NCBI RefSeq assembly: GCF_053078305.1
Contig: NZ_CP166875.1
DNA from: a plasmid
Length of the DNA stretch: 64,000 nt
Reading direction: 5' to 3' (one strand)
In this document: one piece after another, positions 1,479-28,983 of the stretch
Layout of the letters: every line of letters starts with the position of its first letter
Position numbering within the stretch: position 1 is the first letter of the stretch
Position numbers and translations under genes: made by a program
The notes under the pieces: model-generated
Told to the model about the DNA's origin: nothing
Databases searched by the model: none
Seen by the model: only the letters and a program-made list of their open reading frames with translations

Positions 1479-2107
1479 GATGCCGGGGGCTGATTGCCCT
1501 GCTGGTATGGGGGCAGAGTGTGGCTGCAGCTGATCTTGGCACCTGGGGGGATTTGTGGCCGGTAAAGGAGGCGGACATGCTGACGGTGATTATGCAGCGT
1601 CTGACAGCTCTGGAGCAGTCCGGAGAGATGGGCCGGAAAATGGATGCGTTTAAGGAGCGGGTGATCCGCAACAGCCTGCGGCCCCCTGCCGTGCCCGGTA
1701 TCGGTCGGACGGAGAAATACAGCAGCCGCCTGTTTGACCCGTCTGTCAGACTGGCTGCGGATATCCGGGATAACGAAGGTCGTATCTTCGCCCGCCAGGG
1801 GGAGGTGATGAACCCGCTGCAGTATGTGCCTTTTAACCAGACACTGTATTTCATCAACGGTGATGATCCTGAGCAGATTGAATGGATGAAGCGCCAGACG
1901 CCTCCCACACTGGAGAGCAAAATTATCCTGGTGCAGGGCAGTATCCCGGAGATGCAGAAGGCTCTGGACAGTCGTGTTTACTTTGATCAGAACGGCGTGA
2001 TCTGCCAGCGTCTCGGCATTGATCAGGTGCCGGCACGGGTGAGTGCTGTCAGTGGCGATCGTTTCCTGAAGGTGGAGTTTATTCCGGTCGGGGAGGGAGG
2101 GAAATGA
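1475..2107 (+). CDS. traW: TraW pilus assembly protein
   Basis: 210 aa with signal peptide; size and synteny match F TraW. Confidence 0.85.
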   Translation: MRCRGLIALLVWGQSVAAADLGTWGDLWPVKEADMLTVIMQRLTALEQSGEMGRKMDAFKERVIRNSLRPPAVPGIGRTEKYSSRLFDPSVRLAADIRDNEGRIFARQGEVMNPLQYVPFNQTLYFINGDDPEQIEWMKRQTPPTLESKIILVQGSIPEMQKALDSRVYFDQNGVICQRLGIDQVPARVSAVSGDRFLKVEFIPVGEGGK

Positions 2108-3096
2108 AACGGTGTATGTGGTTGTGTGTGGTTTTGCTGCTGACTGGCCATGTTCCCGCAGCCTCAGCGGACGCTGCCTGTGAAGGGCGGTTTGTTAACC
2201 CGATCACGGATATCTGCTGGAACTGCATTTTTCCACTGTCGCTGGGCAGCACAAAAGTGAGTCAGGGGAAGGTGCCGGATACAATAAACCCGTCAATGCC
2301 GATCCAGTTCTGTCCTGCGCCACCGCCTGTATTTAAACGTATCGGGCTGGCTATTGGTTACTGGGAGCCGATGGCACTGACGGATGTGACCCGCAGTCCG
2401 GGATGTATGGTAAATCTTGGAATAACAATCCCGGAGCTGGGGAAAACCGGGCAGGGAACGGCCAAAAAAGACGACAAGCAGGTGAACGGGGCATTTTACC
2501 ATGTTCACTGGTACAAATACCCGCTGACATACTGGCTGAGTATTATCACCTCAGCAGGATGTCTGATGGGCGGCGATATGGATATCGGGTACATCTCAGA
2601 AATTGACCCTACCTGGACAGACAGCAGTCTGACCACCATTCTCAACCCGGAAGCGGTCATCTTTGCAAATCCGATAGCACAGGGAGCCTGTGCGGTGGAT
2701 GCCATTGCCAGTGCCTTTAACAAGCCGCTGGATATCCTGTTCTGGTGTGCCGGTTCGCAGGGCAGTATGTATCCGTTTAATGGCTGGGTGAGCAATGAAT
2801 CCAGTCCGTTGCAGTCATCCCTGCTGGTCAGTGAACGGATGGCGTTTAAGCTCCACCGTCAGGGAATGATAATGAACAGCATCGGCGTGGATGTGGCTGT
2901 CTGTTATGAATATCCGTCGCCCATACTTCCCAAAGAGCGCTGGCGTTATCAGATGGTGAATATGTACCCGGACAGCGGACAGTGCCATCCGTTCGGACGC
3001 AGTGTGATGCGCTGGGAGACGGGAAAAAATCCGCCCAACACAAAGAAAAACTTCGGTTACCTGATGTGGCGTAAACGTAACTGTGTGTTCCTGTAA
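2104..3096 (+). CDS. traU: TraU
   Basis: 330 aa, signal peptide, Cys-rich; size and synteny match F TraU. Confidence 0.9.
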   Translation: MKRCMWLCVVLLLTGHVPAASADAACEGRFVNPITDICWNCIFPLSLGSTKVSQGKVPDTINPSMPIQFCPAPPPVFKRIGLAIGYWEPMALTDVTRSPGCMVNLGITIPELGKTGQGTAKKDDKQVNGAFYHVHWYKYPLTYWLSIITSAGCLMGGDMDIGYISEIDPTWTDSSLTTILNPEAVIFANPIAQGACAVDAIASAFNKPLDILFWCAGSQGSMYPFNGWVSNESSPLQSSLLVSERMAFKLHRQGMIMNSIGVDVAVCYEYPSPILPKERWRYQMVNMYPDSGQCHPFGRSVMRWETGKNPPNTKKNFGYLMWRKRNCVFL

Positions 3097-3109
3097 TCGG
3101 GAAAATGTG

Positions 3110-3652
3110 ATGCGCAACAGTAAAGTGCAACTTGTATCAATCCTCAGACAGGTCAGTCTTTCACTGAACACGGAGCCATTACGACAGTTTATCTCTCTGA
3201 GGGAGATTGCAGAAGAGACGGATCACGTCGCTGCTCGTTTGTCCGGAGGAAAACGGGTAACACCTGCACAAATTTATGAATTGTGTGCACAGTTATGGAT
3301 GGCCAGGATGAAGGCAGTTGAAGTTTATGGGCGACATTCTGATGTGGTGATGTCTCTGGAAAGACAGACTGATTTACTTGAGGCTGCAGGCAACGTATTA
3401 AAACAACGCTGGTTTTACCGTCCGTGGGGATCATCAAAAGCATCTGTGATGCTGACAGGTATACTGGTGATCCCCGTATTTCTGGTTTTATCCGGATTGT
3501 TGAGTGCAGGGTATCCCGGGTTATTATGTATTACCGTATCCGGCTGTTATTTTTCCGGGATTGCCGCTTTTTCTTTGCGGGCTAAAGATCCAGTCGGGCT
3601 TTGCTGGTCTGTGTTCTGTTTTATTCTGCTATATCTGCTCCTGAAAAAATGA
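3110..3652 (+). CDS. hypothetical protein with soluble N-domain and C-terminal hydrophobic helices (non-F cargo)
   Basis: ORF 3083..3652, probable ATG at 3110; AT-rich codon usage unlike flanking tra genes; no family recognised. Confidence 0.35.
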   Translation: MRNSKVQLVSILRQVSLSLNTEPLRQFISLREIAEETDHVAARLSGGKRVTPAQIYELCAQLWMARMKAVEVYGRHSDVVMSLERQTDLLEAAGNVLKQRWFYRPWGSSKASVMLTGILVIPVFLVLSGLLSAGYPGLLCITVSGCYFSGIAAFSLRAKDPVGLCWSVFCFILLYLLLKK

Positions 3653-3654
3653 GA

Positions 3655-4446
3655 TTAATTATTCTGCGTCTGAATAATGAATGCTCCGCCATTGCGATGT
3701 ACTCTGAATCCATTGGGATGCCTCCTGCAGGAGAACAGTCTGTAGCGGGTTTTTCCCCCATACCTCAGATTCAGGACAATAGTTTCACAGAGTGGCGTCT
3801 TCCTTGCCTTTTCTTTATATAGTATACCTTTTTTTTTCAGGTTATTAGCTATTCTGTTTCGGATTCCGTGGCGCAGGATGTGAGACTGTAATGTGATCGT
3901 GTTATAAGACGGATAGCATAATATGAAATGTTCAATATTTCCGACAAGCTTGTCTGCGTTGATTCTTGAGGATACTTTGACAGATGGTCTGGTAATATAT
4001 TGTGGATGTATATCGATTCTCAGGCTGGATATAAAGGGGGTAAGATAAAGACCCGTAACAGGCGTTCTGAGCATGGACGATGAGAAAAAGAACAGAAAAA
4101 ACCATAGTGTAATTACAGATATCCCTGACCTGATAATTACAGAGTATATGTTTCCGCTGAAAGGTGAATAATCTTTTTGTATCATCAGATGTATGATGGA
4201 TGACAGTAAAAACAAAATAAAGCCAGCCGGGAATGGTCTTCTCAGAACTCTGAAAAAGAGACTGTTATTTATGAAGCGAAAACGAAGCAGGACCGTTAAC
4301 AACAGCGATAAGAATATCAGTATTATGACCATTTGCACTCCGAAACTGATACATGAACAGATGTTTAAGGGTGATATTAAATGAGTGAAGGGACAAGAGT
4401 AAATGATTTTGCTTATGTCAAACAGGCCCTTTTGGCGGTGTTTCAT
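3655..4446 (-). CDS. hypothetical polytopic membrane protein (may instead be antisense shadow of + strand genes)
   Basis: 263-aa ORF uninterrupted in AT-rich DNA; F/L/I-rich; overlaps small + strand ORF 4193..4384. Confidence 0.3.
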   Translation of the reverse strand: MKHRQKGLFDISKIIYSCPFTHLISPLNICSCISFGVQMVIILIFLSLLLTVLLRFRFINNSLFFRVLRRPFPAGFILFLLSSIIHLMIQKDYSPFSGNIYSVIIRSGISVITLWFFLFFFSSSMLRTPVTGLYLTPFISSLRIDIHPQYITRPSVKVSSRINADKLVGNIEHFILCYPSYNTITLQSHILRHGIRNRIANNLKKKGILYKEKARKTPLCETIVLNLRYGGKTRYRLFSCRRHPNGFRVHRNGGAFIIQTQNN

Positions 4447-4827
4447 CGGATGAATACCCGGCCGCTCACCAGGCTATGTGAAAAAGATGATATTCAGCGT
4501 GGAATTGCAGATATTCAATGGATGTTACATCATCACTATTATCCATCACCCGGACAGGTTTGTTTTATAATATTTTTATTGCGGGATGAGAAGTTCCGGG
4601 TAGTGCGGGAAGATGGGCGTCAGTCATTCCTTGCAGTTGAAATTCAGTCGTTAATTGATGTTCTGAAAGATATACGGAAATACCTGCAGTTTGTGACACG
4701 GTATGACTGTGATGGTTGTATTATCAGGCTGCATGCCAGTGCTGAACGTAAATACCTGTGGATTTTCCTTGAGTGTGTAATTGTGTTTATTTTGTGTGCT
4801 GTGCTGTTTTTTCTGATTATCTGTTAA
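4381..4827 (+). CDS. hypothetical protein with C-terminal TM anchor (non-F cargo)
   Basis: 148 aa; start overlaps stop of upstream 63-aa ORF (ATGA), suggesting translational coupling; no family recognised. Confidence 0.4.
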   Translation: MSEGTRVNDFAYVKQALLAVFHRMNTRPLTRLCEKDDIQRGIADIQWMLHHHYYPSPGQVCFIIFLLRDEKFRVVREDGRQSFLAVEIQSLIDVLKDIRKYLQFVTRYDCDGCIIRLHASAERKYLWIFLECVIVFILCAVLFFLIIC

Positions 4828-4835
4828 AAACACCT

Positions 4836-5015
4836 GGTGGTGAACATGTACCCGGACAGCGGACAGCGGACAGCGGACAGCGGACAGCGGACAGCGGACA
4901 GTGCCATCCGTTCGGGCGCAGTGTGATGCGCCGGGAGACGGAAAAAAATCCGCCTGACACAAAGAAAAACTTCGGTTACCTGATGTGGCGTAAACGTAAC
5001 TGTGTATTTCTGTAA
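4836..5015. repeat. direct duplication of the traU 3' end (copy of ~2953..3096) carrying an expanded heptamer tract
   Basis: Near-identical to traU 3' end including the TraU C-terminal codons and stop; read directly from sequence. Confidence 0.85.
4854..4888. repeat. tandem heptanucleotide GGACAGC x5 plus one degenerate unit
   Basis: Native traU copy at 2970..2983 has one perfect plus one degenerate unit; duplicate has five perfect units. Confidence 0.9.
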
Positions 5016-5041
5016 CTTAAACAAAAAGAGGAATATTTTAA

Positions 5042-5374
5042 ATGGAAAAGAAATTAAGCAGTAAATACATTCATATTTATATGAGTATATCCTGTGTGTT
5101 CATTCGTTTGACAGGCAAAGCATTAAAATTGTTTCCTTTTGCACTGGTGATGCTATTCACGGTGTTGTTTTATTTTATGCCTGAAAATGTTATCTGTGAC
5201 ATTATCAGTGAATGGCAGAGAAGTGATGTGTCAGACAGGATCAGAGTTATCAGACTATATCTGGGAACAACTTTTTTATGCACCTGGGCGGCTGTTTTTT
5301 TGGAGTTTCTCTGCTCTGATGAGTTTCTGCCGGGAAAGAGATTAAACAAAAATGAAGAAGAGAATAACGGGTAA
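5042..5374 (+). CDS. hypothetical small membrane protein (non-F cargo)
   Basis: 110-aa ORF, hydrophobic segments, AT-rich. Confidence 0.3.
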   Translation: MEKKLSSKYIHIYMSISCVFIRLTGKALKLFPFALVMLFTVLFYFMPENVICDIISEWQRSDVSDRIRVIRLYLGTTFLCTWAAVFLEFLCSDEFLPGKRLNKNEEENNG

Positions 5375-5602
5375 TATCTGACTCATTTTATGTGCATCGG
5401 TCAGAAATGAATTAATGATTTAACAGAGTGAATATCCGGTATCGTTTATCTAATTGCTGCCAGTCTCAGAAAAAAGATAAATGGAGAAAGAAGTTAATCA
5501 ACGATCTTCGTTGTGTTTAACATGGCGTCAGTTATCTCCAGGCTTGCTCTATTGAGCACCTCATTATGACGATTAATTACTGTCTGTTTGCAGGAGAATT
5601 AT

Positions 5603-6241
5603 ATGAACAAAAAAATATACATTTTATTCGCCCTGACAGCAGGATTGTTTCTTTCTGCCCATGCTTCGGAAAATGTGAATACGCCCGAAAATCGCCAGTT
5701 CCTGAAGCAGCAGGAAACACTGAGTCAGCAGTTGCGTGAAAAGCCGGACACACAACTGCAGGCATGGGCAGAACAGCAGGTCAGGGCGAATCCCCTTCAG
5801 CATGCCGATAACCAGTTTCTCGATGAACTGGTCCGTAAACAGCAGGCTGCTCAGAAAGACAAACCACAGCAGGGGGCCGTGTATTTTGTGTCGTTCTCCA
5901 TTCCCGAAGAGGGACTGAAACGGATGCTGGGAGAAACCAGGCACTACGGCATTCCGGCCACACTGCGGGGTATGGTGAACAATGACCTGAAGACTACCGC
6001 TGAAGCCGTGTTGTCCCTGGTAAAAGATGGCGCGACCGATGGTGTTCAGATTGACCCGACGTTGTTTTCACAGTACGGCATCCGCAGCGTGCCGGCCCTG
6101 GTGGTGTTCTGCAGCCAGGGGCACGACATCATCCGGGGAAATCTGCGCGTCAGGCAGGCGCTGGAAAAAGTGGCCGCCACGGGAGACTGCCGGCAGGTGG
6201 CTCAGGGACTGCTGGACGGCACCGGGGATAAGCTGCAATGA
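5603..6241 (+). CDS. trbC: TrbC
   Basis: ATG at 5603 preceded by aggag; 212 aa with signal peptide; size and synteny match F TrbC. Confidence 0.85.
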   Translation: MNKKIYILFALTAGLFLSAHASENVNTPENRQFLKQQETLSQQLREKPDTQLQAWAEQQVRANPLQHADNQFLDELVRKQQAAQKDKPQQGAVYFVSFSIPEEGLKRMLGETRHYGIPATLRGMVNNDLKTTAEAVLSLVKDGATDGVQIDPTLFSQYGIRSVPALVVFCSQGHDIIRGNLRVRQALEKVAATGDCRQVAQGLLDGTGDKLQ

Positions 6242-6618
6242 GTTTACCTGCCGGGTATTACCGGATTGAACCGGACATCCGTGCACTGGTGGCCGCGATG
6301 AACGTTCACGGATTCCGTACATATGCCTCCTGTCAGGGACATGGTTTCCCGGTCACAAAGCTGCTGCCTTATATTGCCTTTGCCTGTCCGGTAAAAATGA
6401 CTGCCCTTCTTGAGCAGCGACTGCGGCAGGATGCTGAATCAGCAATACCACGTCTGACATGGGGATGGTCGGTGAAGGGGGCTTTTAACAGTGACCTTCA
6501 GCTCTGTTTCCGGCTTCAGCCGGAAGGTCCTCATTGCTGGTATCACCGGTACTGTCGTCGTTCACTGCGTGCAGACTTCAGGACGCTGATATTGTTACTG
6601 AAGTCGTTATCTGAGTAG
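6238..6618 (+). CDS. hypothetical Cys/His-containing protein, not part of the F tra set
   Basis: 126 aa; ATGA overlap with trbC stop; no family recognised. Confidence 0.4.
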   Translation: MSLPAGYYRIEPDIRALVAAMNVHGFRTYASCQGHGFPVTKLLPYIAFACPVKMTALLEQRLRQDAESAIPRLTWGWSVKGAFNSDLQLCFRLQPEGPHCWYHRYCRRSLRADFRTLILLLKSLSE

Positions 6619-9636: not shown

Positions 9637-9978
9637 ATGCATACAGGGGATTTGTGTTTTTTTACAGGTGCCAGCCTGTTTATCGTGGGGGGTGTTGGTT
9701 ATTTCTTTACAGGACCAAATAATAAAGGAGTTTATCTGCTGAGCTCGTTTGTCTTCTTTGTAGTAAATGTCATAAGTGTATGTGTGCTGCCAGATAATTT
9801 CTTGTTTCTTTGTGGTGCGGTTATGAATCAGTGTGCCGTACCCGTTGTTTCAATGGCAGTCGGTACCATTCCGGTTATCACGAAGTTCGAGAGGTTCAGA
9901 AGAATATTTGTCTGTATTATGTTGTCATCAGCATGGTCAGGAGTAATGTGGTTTTTTATTATTTCATTAGTGAAATGA
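9637..9978 (+). CDS. trbA: TrbA
   Basis: 113-aa hydrophobic protein in the F TrbA position. Confidence 0.55.
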   Translation: MHTGDLCFFTGASLFIVGGVGYFFTGPNNKGVYLLSSFVFFVVNVISVCVLPDNFLFLCGAVMNQCAVPVVSMAVGTIPVITKFERFRRIFVCIMLSSAWSGVMWFFIISLVK

Positions 9979-10303
9979 CTGGTGCTAATTTGTCATAAAT
10001 GACAAATCCAATAGTGAGGTTGATTACCACAGACCAGAGGATAAACCAGACTGCTATCCAGTGACTTCTGAATAATTCACAAAAATAAACATAGATGATT
10101 AGAAATAGCCATATCACAACAGCGATGATTGCTATAAATAACAGTATCGTCACAAATAAATCAGCAAAGGTTTTAATGGGGAAGGAATGCAATAATGAAT
10201 ACACCAGTAAAGCAAAAGCCGCATTACCTGATAATGACTCTCTTATGATGTTTCTCACTATTTCCAGTTTTTCTTTGAAAGATAACTTTTTCATATAACA
10301 CAC
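9959..10303 (-). CDS. artA: ArtA-like antisense-strand ORF
   Basis: 114-aa hydrophobic ORF on opposite strand between trbA and traQ, as artA in F. Confidence 0.4.
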   Translation of the reverse strand: MCYMKKLSFKEKLEIVRNIIRESLSGNAAFALLVYSLLHSFPIKTFADLFVTILLFIAIIAVVIWLFLIIYVYFCELFRSHWIAVWFILWSVVINLTIGFVIYDKLAPVISLMK

Positions 10304-17329: not shown

Positions 17330-17388
17330 ATTACCCATCCGGCCCGGACAGATTGTACCGGGCCGATATTCCTGCCCCGGATGAATAC

Positions 17389-17649
17389 ATGAACCGTGCA
17401 GAATCTCGTCTCTCGCAGGTACTCTTTCTGCTGGGCTATGACAGTGAAAAGTATCCTGAGCATGTATGTCGGGAGTTATTAAAAGAACTTTACCGGTTTG
17501 CTGATGCAACCGGAGATTCTGAACTGGCCATAGCCTGCCAGAGATACCTGACAGCACTGGAACCGTTCTCTGCATATGAGATCGGCGTAAGCGCAACAGA
17601 ATATCTTCCTGTGAGTGAATATCCGACCGGACGTCGCAGAAGAAAATAG
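17389..17649 (+). CDS. hypothetical protein in traT/traD insert
   Basis: ORF 17353..17649 begins with TTG inside the traT hairpin; first ATG at 17389; weak ribosome-binding site. Confidence 0.3.
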   Translation: MNRAESRLSQVLFLLGYDSEKYPEHVCRELLKELYRFADATGDSELAIACQRYLTALEPFSAYEIGVSATEYLPVSEYPTGRRRRK

Positions 17650-17716
17650 CTGACGCCTCGCGTTGCTCGTTGTCCAACCCCGGGAAGTAACAAAATAAAT
17701 TTTGTCACTTCCCGGC
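17641..17716. repeat. conserved ~75-bp hairpin element, copy 1 (second copy at 29931..30005)
   Basis: Shared flanks TGACGCCT(T)CGCGTTGCTC(A)GTTGTCCAACCCCGG ... CCCGGCGTTTC around a stem-loop; both copies abut a stop codon. Confidence 0.7.
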
Positions 17717-17816
17717 GTTTCCGAAATAAATATGAGAACACTGAACGGTTGTGCAAATTCTTTGTGCGACCGTGAAGTGTTGCCGGCGAAGCCGGAAGCT
17801 TCCGGAGAAAGTCATT

Positions 17817-18548
17817 ATGACATCAGACAATATCGCTGAATATGTTGGTGAGAATAATCAATTTACTGAGAAGCCTGTAACTGAATACTCCCCGGTGATA
17901 CAGGATAATACAGCGACCACAAAAGATTATCTGTACAGCAATAATATTGATACTGACCTTTTAGTGGTTATCGGAGGGCTTATTGTTATATTGTTTCTCA
18001 TGATGCTTGTCATGTACTTTATTAATTCTCTCAGGCATAAGGAATTAACTGAAATACTGACAAAAATATCTTTTCCTGAGAAATCCGGGAGCAATCCGCT
18101 TAAGCCGGAAGAGGGCCGCTGTAATTTGTTGTCCCTGTGTGTGCTGGCCCCGGTATTCTGTACCCCCAAAAAACTGGCAGAAGTCTCCAGACAGATCATC
18201 GTGACCAGTGCGAAGGAAATTGCCTGGACGCCCGGGAGTAGCCGTATTGATGGTGAGCAGGAAGAAAATATTACCTGGTCTCTGTCGTCACAGACTCATG
18301 CCGATAAATACGATCTCATCAATAAAACATCCCGTGTTTCTCCTGACAGTGGCCACTTTTATGAACCGGGCACGGCTCTGGATTATCGTGAGCGGGTACG
18401 CCTTTTTGTTCAGATCCAGTATTCACACGAGAGTGACTGGTCTGAAATATTGCGCCTGACTGATATCGTGCTGGAAAAAGTTTCTTCCGGCAGACCAGCA
18501 GGCGGCTATCACCACCGGTATACAGGGTATACATGGTTTGTTCTGTGA
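17817..18548 (+). CDS. hypothetical membrane-anchored protein in traT/traD insert
   Basis: ATG at 17817 preceded by ggaga; one TM helix near residue 70; not an F tra protein. Confidence 0.45.
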   Translation: MTSDNIAEYVGENNQFTEKPVTEYSPVIQDNTATTKDYLYSNNIDTDLLVVIGGLIVILFLMMLVMYFINSLRHKELTEILTKISFPEKSGSNPLKPEEGRCNLLSLCVLAPVFCTPKKLAEVSRQIIVTSAKEIAWTPGSSRIDGEQEENITWSLSSQTHADKYDLINKTSRVSPDSGHFYEPGTALDYRERVRLFVQIQYSHESDWSEILRLTDIVLEKVSSGRPAGGYHHRYTGYTWFVL

Positions 18549-18603
18549 ATGTATTCCACACCGCTCTTTTCTGCTCTGTACCTGACTTTACCGGAGTTTC
18601 ATC

Positions 18604-27882: not shown

Positions 27883-28983
27883 TAAAAACGCCCTCTGTAT
27901 GACAGAGGGCAACAGCGAAAAAATCGGGAAAACAGACATCCAGAGTTTTGATGGAGAAAAACACCCAACCGTTCAGGGATGTTTCATAATGTTTCTGACA
28001 TAATCCGGGCGCCGGGTCAAGGGGGGGATAAAAAATGGCTGTATCCAGTGGATTATCTGAGCACAGCGGTATTTATCGCTATCAGCGCGTGGGGCGTCAT
28101 GCCGTCCGTCAGGAGATTCGTGGCTTTTTCAGGGAAGCCGCTGAGGCCTGGCAGAATGCGGCCCGGCTGGCACCCTGTGAAGCATGGCGGGATTTTGCCC
28201 TGAAGAGGGCATCTGCATGCCGGTGTAAGTGCCGATAAAAATAACCCCCGTCGCGGAGCTCCGGGGGATCAGGCTTATATGGCAGATCGTTATTATTATT
28301 ATTATAGTGGTGTAAGAAGGAGTTGCCCTGTCTTTCAAACGGACATCACAGAATTAACATATTTCACCTCCCGGGTAAGCCAGCAGGGATAAAAAATGTG
28401 ATGAATTTCAAGAAGCAGGAGGTGACAGTGGCATGCATAACAGCAGGGTTATCCGGTGAATCTGACAGACAGCCGGGCTGTATTCGCGGCAGGATAAAGA
28501 AAAACCGGGAGATGACTCTCCCGGTCCGTCTTATCGCTAATCCCCTGAGCAGGGCATGTATGACTTATCTATGACCATTATATTCAGCGCCACATCCGGT
28601 AGCCTGCGATATAACACAGTTATCCTGTCAGTAAGAGCAGGTATGATGAATACACGGAGATTAAAAATATAATCTCCGTCACATGTTACCCCCGGAAACC
28701 GGTAACGCCGTCACGGGAAAGACGTGACAGAAAAAGCAGCCTCCGTTACTCCAGGTATCAGAAGGCTGAATAATGCATGAGACTTTCTTTCTTATGTGTC
28801 TGGTCAGGCTGGCTGACCAGCGTTTTTAGTAACACATAGCCATATGTGTATTAAGCCACCTCATCTTATTTTGTTGAATTGATCACAATTCAACGGTTTA
28901 TTTTTGGCGTGATGTGTGAGCCGTTATTCATCCCGGCATGGAATTCATGCAATAACGAAAAGTAATCAGTGACGGAGAGTAAA

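Follow-up and report, generated by a model that had tools for sequence, protein, structure and literature searches.

We analysed a 64,000 nt stretch of plasmid DNA (NCBI RefSeq assembly GCF_053078305.1, contig NZ_CP166875.1; termed the window), whose first 9.6 kb are filled by an F-type transfer operon with the order traC, trbI, traW, traU, a gap, trbC, an open reading frame (ORF) of 126 codons, traN, trbE and traF. The gap between traU and trbC is the subject of this report. In plasmid F, which has none of the genes A, B, C and D described below, only 8 bp separate the traU stop codon from the trbC start codon, in agreement with an earlier model-made reading of the DNA letters (termed the sequence-only reading). 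In the window, the two genes are separated by approximately 2.5 kb of AT-rich DNA, with a GC content of 0.34-0.47 compared with 0.51-0.61 in the flanking tra genes. The sequence-only reading had treated this interval as a single insertion of cargo bounded by a duplicated traU 3′ end. Instead, we find that the interval is a composite of three parts of different age, namely a cassette of genes A, B and C (positions 3097-4837), a traU scar (4838-5015) and a region carrying gene D (5016-5587). We hold this anatomy, together with the evolutionary account of it given below, with high confidence.

The traU gene (2104..3096, plus strand, 330 aa) is intact, as judged from its ORF and from the annotation of a 99.7%-identical plasmid. 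It is followed by gene A (3110..3652, plus strand, 180 aa; annotated WP_001365589) and by gene B (3655..4332, 225 aa), which lies on the minus strand, antisense to the tra operon, and carries no annotation in E. coli records. A divergent intergenic region of 48 bp (4333..4380) separates B from a 3′-truncated gene termed C′ (4381..4827, plus strand, 148 aa; annotated WP_001289131). Gene B therefore converges on A and diverges from C, and A and C are read with the operon. Next comes a remnant of the traU 3′ end (4838..5015, plus strand), a pseudogene fragment that copies positions 2954-3096, followed by gene D (5042..5374, plus strand, 110 aa; annotated WP_044192456), an AT-rich spacer (5375..5602, GC approximately 0.37) and trbC (5603..6241, plus strand). 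The trbC gene encodes 212 aa as annotated in a near-identical plasmid, and its ORF opens at TTG 5588. The Prokaryotic Genome Annotation Pipeline calls A, C′ and D, each as a hypothetical protein, but not B.

The ORFs of 189, 263, 148 and 110 codons that the sequence-only reading singled out are all real genes. They correspond to A (180 aa from its conserved start), B (225 aa, encoded within the 263-codon ORF that had been noted as a minus-strand candidate), C′ and D. An ORF of 80 codons at 4773-5015 was rejected as a gene, as it is merely a reading frame of the traU remnant, where the RefSeq feature is named ‘TraU family protein’. No conserved ORF or RNA family was found in the spacer at 5375-5602, and an Rfam scan of 2900-5800 returned a single sub-threshold chance match.

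The distribution of gene D sets it apart from the rest of the interval. In a search of the 72,556 plasmids of PLSDB, the D family was detected by tblastn in 2,027, with 14 matches of at least 90% identity, making the window allele rare. The gene resides just upstream of trbC in every locus checked for position, and a homologue is present in the Salmonella plasmid L004. The sequence-only reading had held that its cargo interpretation would fall if these ORFs were a routine conserved block of F-like plasmids, and for D this is what we find. Given its occurrence in 2,027 plasmids, D is a backbone gene rather than cargo, and the last 570 bp of the interval are backbone with it. Its product is predicted from hydropathy to be a small protein with two transmembrane (TM) helices.

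Empty sites provide a second line of evidence. In six plasmids of the L002 type, traU, D and trbC are contiguous and 97.3% identical to window positions 4902-5600. The sequence CTTAAACAAAAAGAGGAATATTTTAAATGG that follows the traU stop codon in these plasmids is identical to the sequence following the remnant in the window, and the remnant is contiguous with D exactly as the real traU is in these plasmids. The L002-type plasmids thus represent sites without the cassette. An optional insertion, as originally proposed, is therefore upheld for most of the interval by plasmids that lack A-B-C and match across the joint, but not for the last 570 bp. Moreover, the inserted module does not end at the traU copy, which sits between C′ and D with a further 572 bp (5016-5587, including D) before trbC.

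Across plasmids, the traU|trbC site holds nothing (as in F), D alone, other small ORFs, A and C, A-B-C, or stacked sets. Because these alternative contents, including an empty state, occur at one fixed site, traU|trbC is a variable hotspot of the transfer operon. A literature search found no description of either the cassette or this hotspot. Variable hotspots between conserved tra genes are exemplified by HS1-HS5 of the SXT/R391 integrative and conjugative elements. The traU|trbC site resembles the tra-gene hotspots of F-type mating pair formation (MPF_F) systems in offering a fixed intergenic position to alternative, optional gene sets. It differs from SXT/R391-type hotspots in that the cargo is not defence or resistance genes but a cassette that recurs only in transfer operons, and in that exchange leaves copies of the 3′ end of the flanking gene.

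These copies offer clues to how the cassette arrived. The final 143 bp of traU (2954-3096) recur at 4838-5015 as a 29 nt segment of 97% identity and a 128 nt segment of 95% identity. The duplication recognized by the sequence-only reading is thus genuine, traU was left intact, and the duplication is linked to acquisition of the cassette. Within the remnant, the heptamer CGGACAG has expanded from two to seven copies, forming the array (CGGACAG)7 at 4853-4901. The corresponding arrays in the remnants of sister plasmids contain 2, 2, 5, 6 and 8 copies. Functional traU genes always carry two, and the variation therefore reflects free slippage once the sequence became non-coding.

The remnant is found solely in the lineage with truncated C. 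In both the window and a 90%-identical Salmonella plasmid (L006), C ends after its first TM helix, just upstream of the remnant start. Synonymous divergence (pS) between these two plasmids is 0.12-0.27 in the cassette and 0.55 in traU. The cassette is therefore more similar between them than traU is, and must have moved between backbones. Two further scars are independent of this one. In L030, a traU fragment of 293 nt and 80% identity lies upstream of A, with other cargo stacked between traU and the cassette, and in the Enterobacter locus L009 a 44 nt fragment of the traU 3′ end follows a full-length C.

No transposase or integrase ORF, terminal inverted repeats or short target-site duplication were found in 3097-5587. 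A transposon, insertion sequence (IS) or integron cassette was rejected, given that the direct repeat is 143 bp long, with copies 5% apart (20% in L030), and originates in the flanking gene. The same length, divergence and traU derivation rule against reading the repeat as a transposon target-site duplication. Given this divergence between the copies, both in the window and in L030, the traU repeat is probably a scar of recombination between diverged plasmids, rather than the boundary of an insertion mechanism.

We propose that this lineage acquired the cassette through an exchange with another F-like plasmid, in which recombination would have been homologous at one end, within traU, and illegitimate at the other, where the 3′ portion of C was connected to the resident traU gene 143 bp from its end. 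One homologous crossover combined with one illegitimate joint would necessarily leave an intact traU and a partial copy. In the product, traU would be intact, C would be truncated to C′, and the traU 3′ remnant would remain joined to the resident D. This scheme resembles homology-facilitated illegitimate recombination, both in the combination of a homologous anchor in traU with a non-homologous joint and in the partial duplication, whose copies trace to diverged lineages (identity of 95% in the window and 80% in L030). The parallel is drawn here from the end products.

The cassette genes themselves, including the unannotated B, behave as functional coding sequences. The B ORF is conserved in Salmonella and Klebsiella copies that share only 67-70% DNA identity, and its conserved ATG start at 4332 is preceded by GGAG 5 nt upstream; the raw 263-codon ORF reaches 4446. 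Homologues number 26 in a collection of 5.8 billion proteins, and 30 cluster representatives at 50% identity were found among 1.84 billion. The ratio of non-synonymous to synonymous change (dN/dS) is 0.16-0.21, and the window copy is intact and identical to a 135-member cluster. The conserved frame, homologues, constrained substitution and conserved start show that B is a real gene, although it is omitted from annotation.

Gene A starts at ATG 3110 within its raw ORF of 189 codons. This start is conserved and is used by same-site orthologues in six other lineages; the orthologues were taken from synteny, and a word-seeded homologue search gave close relatives only. The A protein has a helical N-terminal domain of approximately 105 aa, a W-x-Y-R-x-W motif and a hydrophobic tail, in which hydropathy shows two peaks and an alignment suggests three TM helices. 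Members of the full-length C family (189-211 aa) share this architecture of a helical N-terminal domain followed by a TM tail, again with three TM helices. In the window, C′ retains the N-terminal domain and one TM helix (one hydropathy peak), having lost the second and third at the recombination joint. A and C are distant paralogues (hhalign 95.6%, E 1.3e-8 over a 102-residue N-terminal domain). Their N-terminal domains are probably cytoplasmic and the proteins probably reside in the inner membrane. Homology of A and C to TrbA of F was rejected (hmmsearch E >0.08, hhalign probability <2%), as was homology to TraX, TraT and other proteins of R64 by profile comparison.

The dN/dS values are 0.17-0.38 for A and 0.21 for C′ relative to the Salmonella copy, with dN of A and C three to six times that of traU. 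Because pN is well below pS in all three genes, A, B and C are under purifying selection.

The genomic distribution of the cassette is narrow. Of the PLSDB plasmids, 3,896 match the traU or trbC ends, approximately 25 carry 3097-5015 at high identity and 85 carry B, with all sampled loci at the traU-trbC site. Among 5,426 complete E. coli genomes the cassette occurs in 37, always on plasmids and never on the chromosome. The order traU, A, antisense B, C, trbC is found in E. coli, Salmonella, Klebsiella, Cedecea, Enterobacter and metagenomic contigs. The Klebsiella cassettes fall into two diverged types, one of which is present in approximately 57 plasmids.

More distant B homologues reside in IncI-type (Dot/Icm-like) transfer operons, where B is again antisense and is paired divergently with a C-like gene recognized by the C profile, leaving 31-59 bp between the start codons. 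Such B/C pairs are located between traK and sog (L022 and L031) or between traR and traT-U (L017, L023 and L032). A weaker case is L016, where a B-like gene adjoins a pilV fragment and converges on a tail-anchored ORF of 166 codons that does not match the C profile. Because IncI-type operons carry B with a C-like gene, the divergent B/C pair is the conserved core, and A is an additional paralogue in F-type plasmids. In the 14 loci inspected (the window, seven with MPF_F and six with I-type, or MPF_I, systems), B is always antisense inside a transfer operon, and the insertions occupy one MPF_F site and three different MPF_I sites (traK|sog, traR|traT-U and within pilV). The A-B-C genes therefore form a conserved unit confined to conjugative transfer operons of two MPF types. 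This confinement, and the relationship of B described below, do not fit cargo of an arbitrary kind.

A separate observation concerns the IncI-like pil operon of L016 (7405-8052 and 4416-5780). Here the B-like and 166-codon tail-anchored genes lie between a diverged N-terminal fragment of pilV (45% amino acid identity over 140 residues) and an intact pilV, an arrangement that echoes the traU scar.

We next considered what the B protein might be. An AlphaFold2 (AF2) model built from a 37-sequence alignment has a mean pLDDT of 91.2 and includes three TM helices (residues 2-16, 33-55 and 62-85) and an alpha/beta domain that is predicted to be cytoplasmic. An earlier AF2 run with 19 close homologues gave a pLDDT of 67 and a disordered C-terminus; it was discarded, and the representatives of clusters at 50% identity were added. 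The protein is strongly basic (31 K+R compared with 6 D+E). Residues S150, H151, L187, N188, Y191, G192 and N207 are invariant, and N188, Y191 and G192 form the core of a LNLRYGGKTRYR motif.

No significant matches for A, B, C or D were returned by NCBIfam, PADLOC, PHROGs or Pfam with single proteins or alignments, nor for A, B or C by a sequence-profile search of the PDB, consistent with the earlier remark that these families are unrecognizable. Beyond the family of B itself, the sole AlphaFold-database matches to the B model (Foldseek against AFDB50) are PilK of IncI1, annotated as a ‘pili assembly chaperone’, and TraD of IncI1 (E 8e-6 to 3e-3, probability 1.0). The B model and both proteins share N-terminal TM helices and a C-terminal cytoplasmic alpha/beta domain of the same fold. 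In an 11-protein database, the B profile gave weak scores against R64 TraD (20.4 bits, E 2e-7) and PilK (17.1 bits, E 2e-6), with hhalign values of 65% and 85%. The other R64 and F proteins tested (ExcA, TraX, TraT and PilJ; ArtA, TrbA and TraQ of F) gave no match. We conclude that B may be a remote relative of PilK and TraD.

Like the R64 proteins, B combines N-terminal TM helices with a basic cytoplasmic alpha/beta domain, shares the motif SHL(I/L/F)T..R..L...G, and is encoded inside conjugation clusters. Identity is only approximately 12-20%, and the differences are substantial. R64 pilK and traD are co-oriented with their operons whereas B is antisense in every locus examined, and PilK and TraD lack both a C-like partner and the invariant C-terminal LNLRYGGKTRYR...HPNGFKVH region. 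PilK is reported to be needed for thin-pilus formation, and TraD to be dispensable. The traABCD cluster has been called regulatory (PMC4288162).

Other candidate relationships for B were rejected. A weak GNAT/EctA resemblance of the model has a TM-score of 0.27, and the soluble domain lacks the conserved acidic metal-binding residues of the RNase E/G catalytic ‘DNase I’ subdomain. Homology to ArtA of F fails by hmmsearch (E >0.08) and hhalign (probability <2%), and homology to ExcA of IncI plasmids fails by profile comparison with the R64 protein (E 0.23, hhalign 0.7%).

The ExcA result bears on the possibility that the cassette is an extra entry- or surface-exclusion determinant, in which case B would serve in the inner membrane as an exclusion protein comparable to TraS, ExcA or Eex and would need to be expressed constitutively and independently of tra. 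B resembles ExcA (220 aa) in size and topology, and Eex proteins are similar in the same respects. Location in transfer operons is also in keeping with such a role, and independent antisense expression would suit a function on the recipient side. However, the B profile does not match R64 ExcA, traS and traT are already present downstream on the plasmid, and the B family occurs in both MPF_F and MPF_I systems whereas exclusion is system-specific. Exclusion would also leave the role of A and C unexplained, and we consider it very unlikely.

The sequence-only reading had suggested anti-defence or establishment genes co-expressed with transfer. This proposal accommodates the AT-rich and optional nature of the module and the co-orientation of A and C with the operon. 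However, the products are all predicted to be integral to donor membranes, the leading region, which enters the recipient first, lies far from the site, and Pfam, NCBIfam and PHROGs returned no match to the ORFs, in searches that included no anti-defence library. This role seems more doubtful still.

The fate of B in related plasmids is informative. A and C′ are intact in all eight of the close relatives examined, and B has been frameshifted in three different ways (L018, L019 and L020) or has suffered a 574 bp deletion (L013) in plasmids that keep A and C. In the Klebsiella plasmid L014, B is precisely deleted and A and C are intact, and in Hafnia-type plasmids A and C without B are the standard state. 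In tblastn, approximately half of the E. coli rows that match B are split into several pieces. These patterns suggest that B is a costly or dispensable component.

IS3-family and IS600 elements were also seen inside the A-B-C cassettes of the sister E. coli plasmids NZ_CP076705.1 and NZ_AP042484.1.

Such decay raises the possibility that in the E. coli lineage the cassette is a functionless hitch-hiker, kept because it is located between essential genes. Truncation of C, breakage or deletion of B in approximately half of the sampled sister plasmids, IS elements in two cassette copies and a remnant microsatellite drifting from 2 to 8 units would all be expected. However, this reading conflicts with the uniform retention of A and C′, with their dN/dS of 0.21-0.38 relative to the 90%-identical Salmonella copy, and with the intact window B that is shared with the large cluster noted above. 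We judge it improbable.

Repeated loss of B would equally be expected of a toxin/immunity, addiction or abortive-infection-type module, in which B would be a membrane toxin made from its own promoter and C (and A) membrane antidotes, with the effect of stabilizing the plasmid or killing infected cells. B never occurs without a C-like neighbour, whereas A and C exist without B, and the inactivation of B with retention of A and C is the usual order of decay for toxin-antidote pairs. In addition, one distant B/C pair adjoins toxin-antitoxin (TA) genes of the Phd/HigB type, and B is opposed by an antisense transcript from the operon, in the manner of type I systems. Against this stand the absence of any match for A, B, C or D among the defence and TA component models of PADLOC, Pfam and NCBIfam, a divergent layout that is atypical of TA operons, and relatives of B (PilK and TraD) that are not toxins. 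Furthermore, TA and defence modules of a generic kind turn up in diverse settings, whereas this cassette is restricted to transfer operons in all 14 loci with enough context and is absent from E. coli chromosomes. A toxin-antidote function therefore seems rather unlikely.

We tentatively favour a module tied to conjugation, in which B would be costly or inhibitory and A and C its operon-coupled partners. This preference is based on confinement to transfer operons of two MPF types, the antisense orientation of B relative to the sense orientation of C, the PilK/TraD relationship, the need of B for a C-like gene and the repeated loss of B. On this view, the cassette would not be generic cargo but would target the conjugative apparatus or the envelope of the donor. 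Production of A and C would be limited to times when the tra operon is on. B would be made from its own promoter, giving an mRNA fully complementary to the operon transcript, and expression of B and read-through of the operon would therefore oppose each other. In all relatives the B/C gap is 31-59 bp, and so the promoter of each gene must overlap the other gene. We propose that B could serve as a brake or modulator of pilus or type IV secretion system (T4SS) function, and that A and C either counteract B or work with it.

A bolder version, which we consider possible but doubtful, is that the B/C pair is a dedicated and previously unrecognized control module common to F-type and I-type conjugation, with B gating or inhibiting the pilus or T4SS of its own machine or of co-resident competitors. 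Tail-anchored C (plus A in F-type plasmids) would relieve B only when the transfer operon is transcribed, and convergent transcription across B would add a toggle at the RNA level. If so, plasmids could reach derepressed transfer through natural loss of B.

Several points weigh against the conjugation-linked account. The orientation rule for B rests on only approximately four independent insertion sites. The link to PilK and TraD is remote, at approximately 20 bits and 65-85% in hhalign, with TM-scores of 0.4-0.5 that are inflated by the TM helices, and we know of no molecular function for PilK or TraD themselves. No convincing promoter was found for B, as a scan for sigma-70 promoter and terminator consensus sequences gave counts close to those expected from shuffled sequence and no candidate upstream of B. 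The repeated loss of B could be explained just as well by a toxin or by a useless gene, and the E. coli copy of the cassette may be decaying, given the truncation of C here and the frequent breakage of B in sister plasmids. Finally, the illegitimate joint is deduced from what it left behind. Taken as a whole, the explanation that combines composite anatomy, arrival by recombination and conjugation-linked action has in our estimation a slightly better than even chance of being correct.

These findings are relevant because, in Enterobacterales, resistance and virulence genes are carried chiefly by F-like and I-type plasmids, whose transfer operons are regarded as completely catalogued. The novelty lies in a conserved B family with paralogous membrane partners, overlooked by standard annotation because the gene is antisense inside an operon, and in the recurrence of this unit in two transfer systems that differ in mechanism. 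Should the cassette prove to modulate piliation or transfer, it would constitute a new layer of fertility control, and sister plasmids with intact, frameshifted and deleted B in bovine and Shiga toxin-producing E. coli would provide a natural experiment. Whatever the function of the cassette, the traU 3′ scars show that cargo can be swapped and stacked in an essential operon without breaking it, and they should help in typing plasmids and in interpreting mosaic tra regions.

The layout of the cassette has a counterpart in the same operon. As in the trbA/artA/traQ region of F, a sense membrane gene is met by a converging antisense membrane gene (gap of 1-2 nt), which in turn diverges from another sense gene, and artA of F resembles B in having been missed by automatic annotation. 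The two arrangements differ in that they show no sequence homology (all hhalign probabilities <5%) and in that ArtA, at 104 aa, has no soluble domain. The window encodes an ArtA homologue at 9959-10303 on the minus strand, a 114-codon ORF (MKKLSFKEKLEIVRNIIRESL...) that lies in antisense orientation between trbA and traQ, overlapping the stop codon of trbA. This second antisense membrane-protein gene of the operon is likewise unannotated in a near-identical RefSeq plasmid.

Other variable positions were also noted. The 126-codon ORF between trbC and traN (6238-6618, plus strand) is absent from F and has no family match. It is conserved among related plasmids, with a homologue of 127 aa and a shared YASCQGHG motif in L030, and the Salmonella plasmid L004 carries an HNH endonuclease gene instead. 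This ORF marks another variable slot of the operon. Between traT and traD, at approximately 17380-18550, two hypothetical genes (86 and 243 aa; collinear with L024 17382-18541) possibly represent another cargo slot. L024 is pFHI_NMBU_11_02, which carries an intact B and is otherwise 99.5% identical to the window. Relative to this plasmid (28672-31189), the window lacks approximately 2.5 kb carrying cirA, which encodes a catecholate siderophore receptor, and has approximately 150 bp of other sequence in its place (28676-28825).

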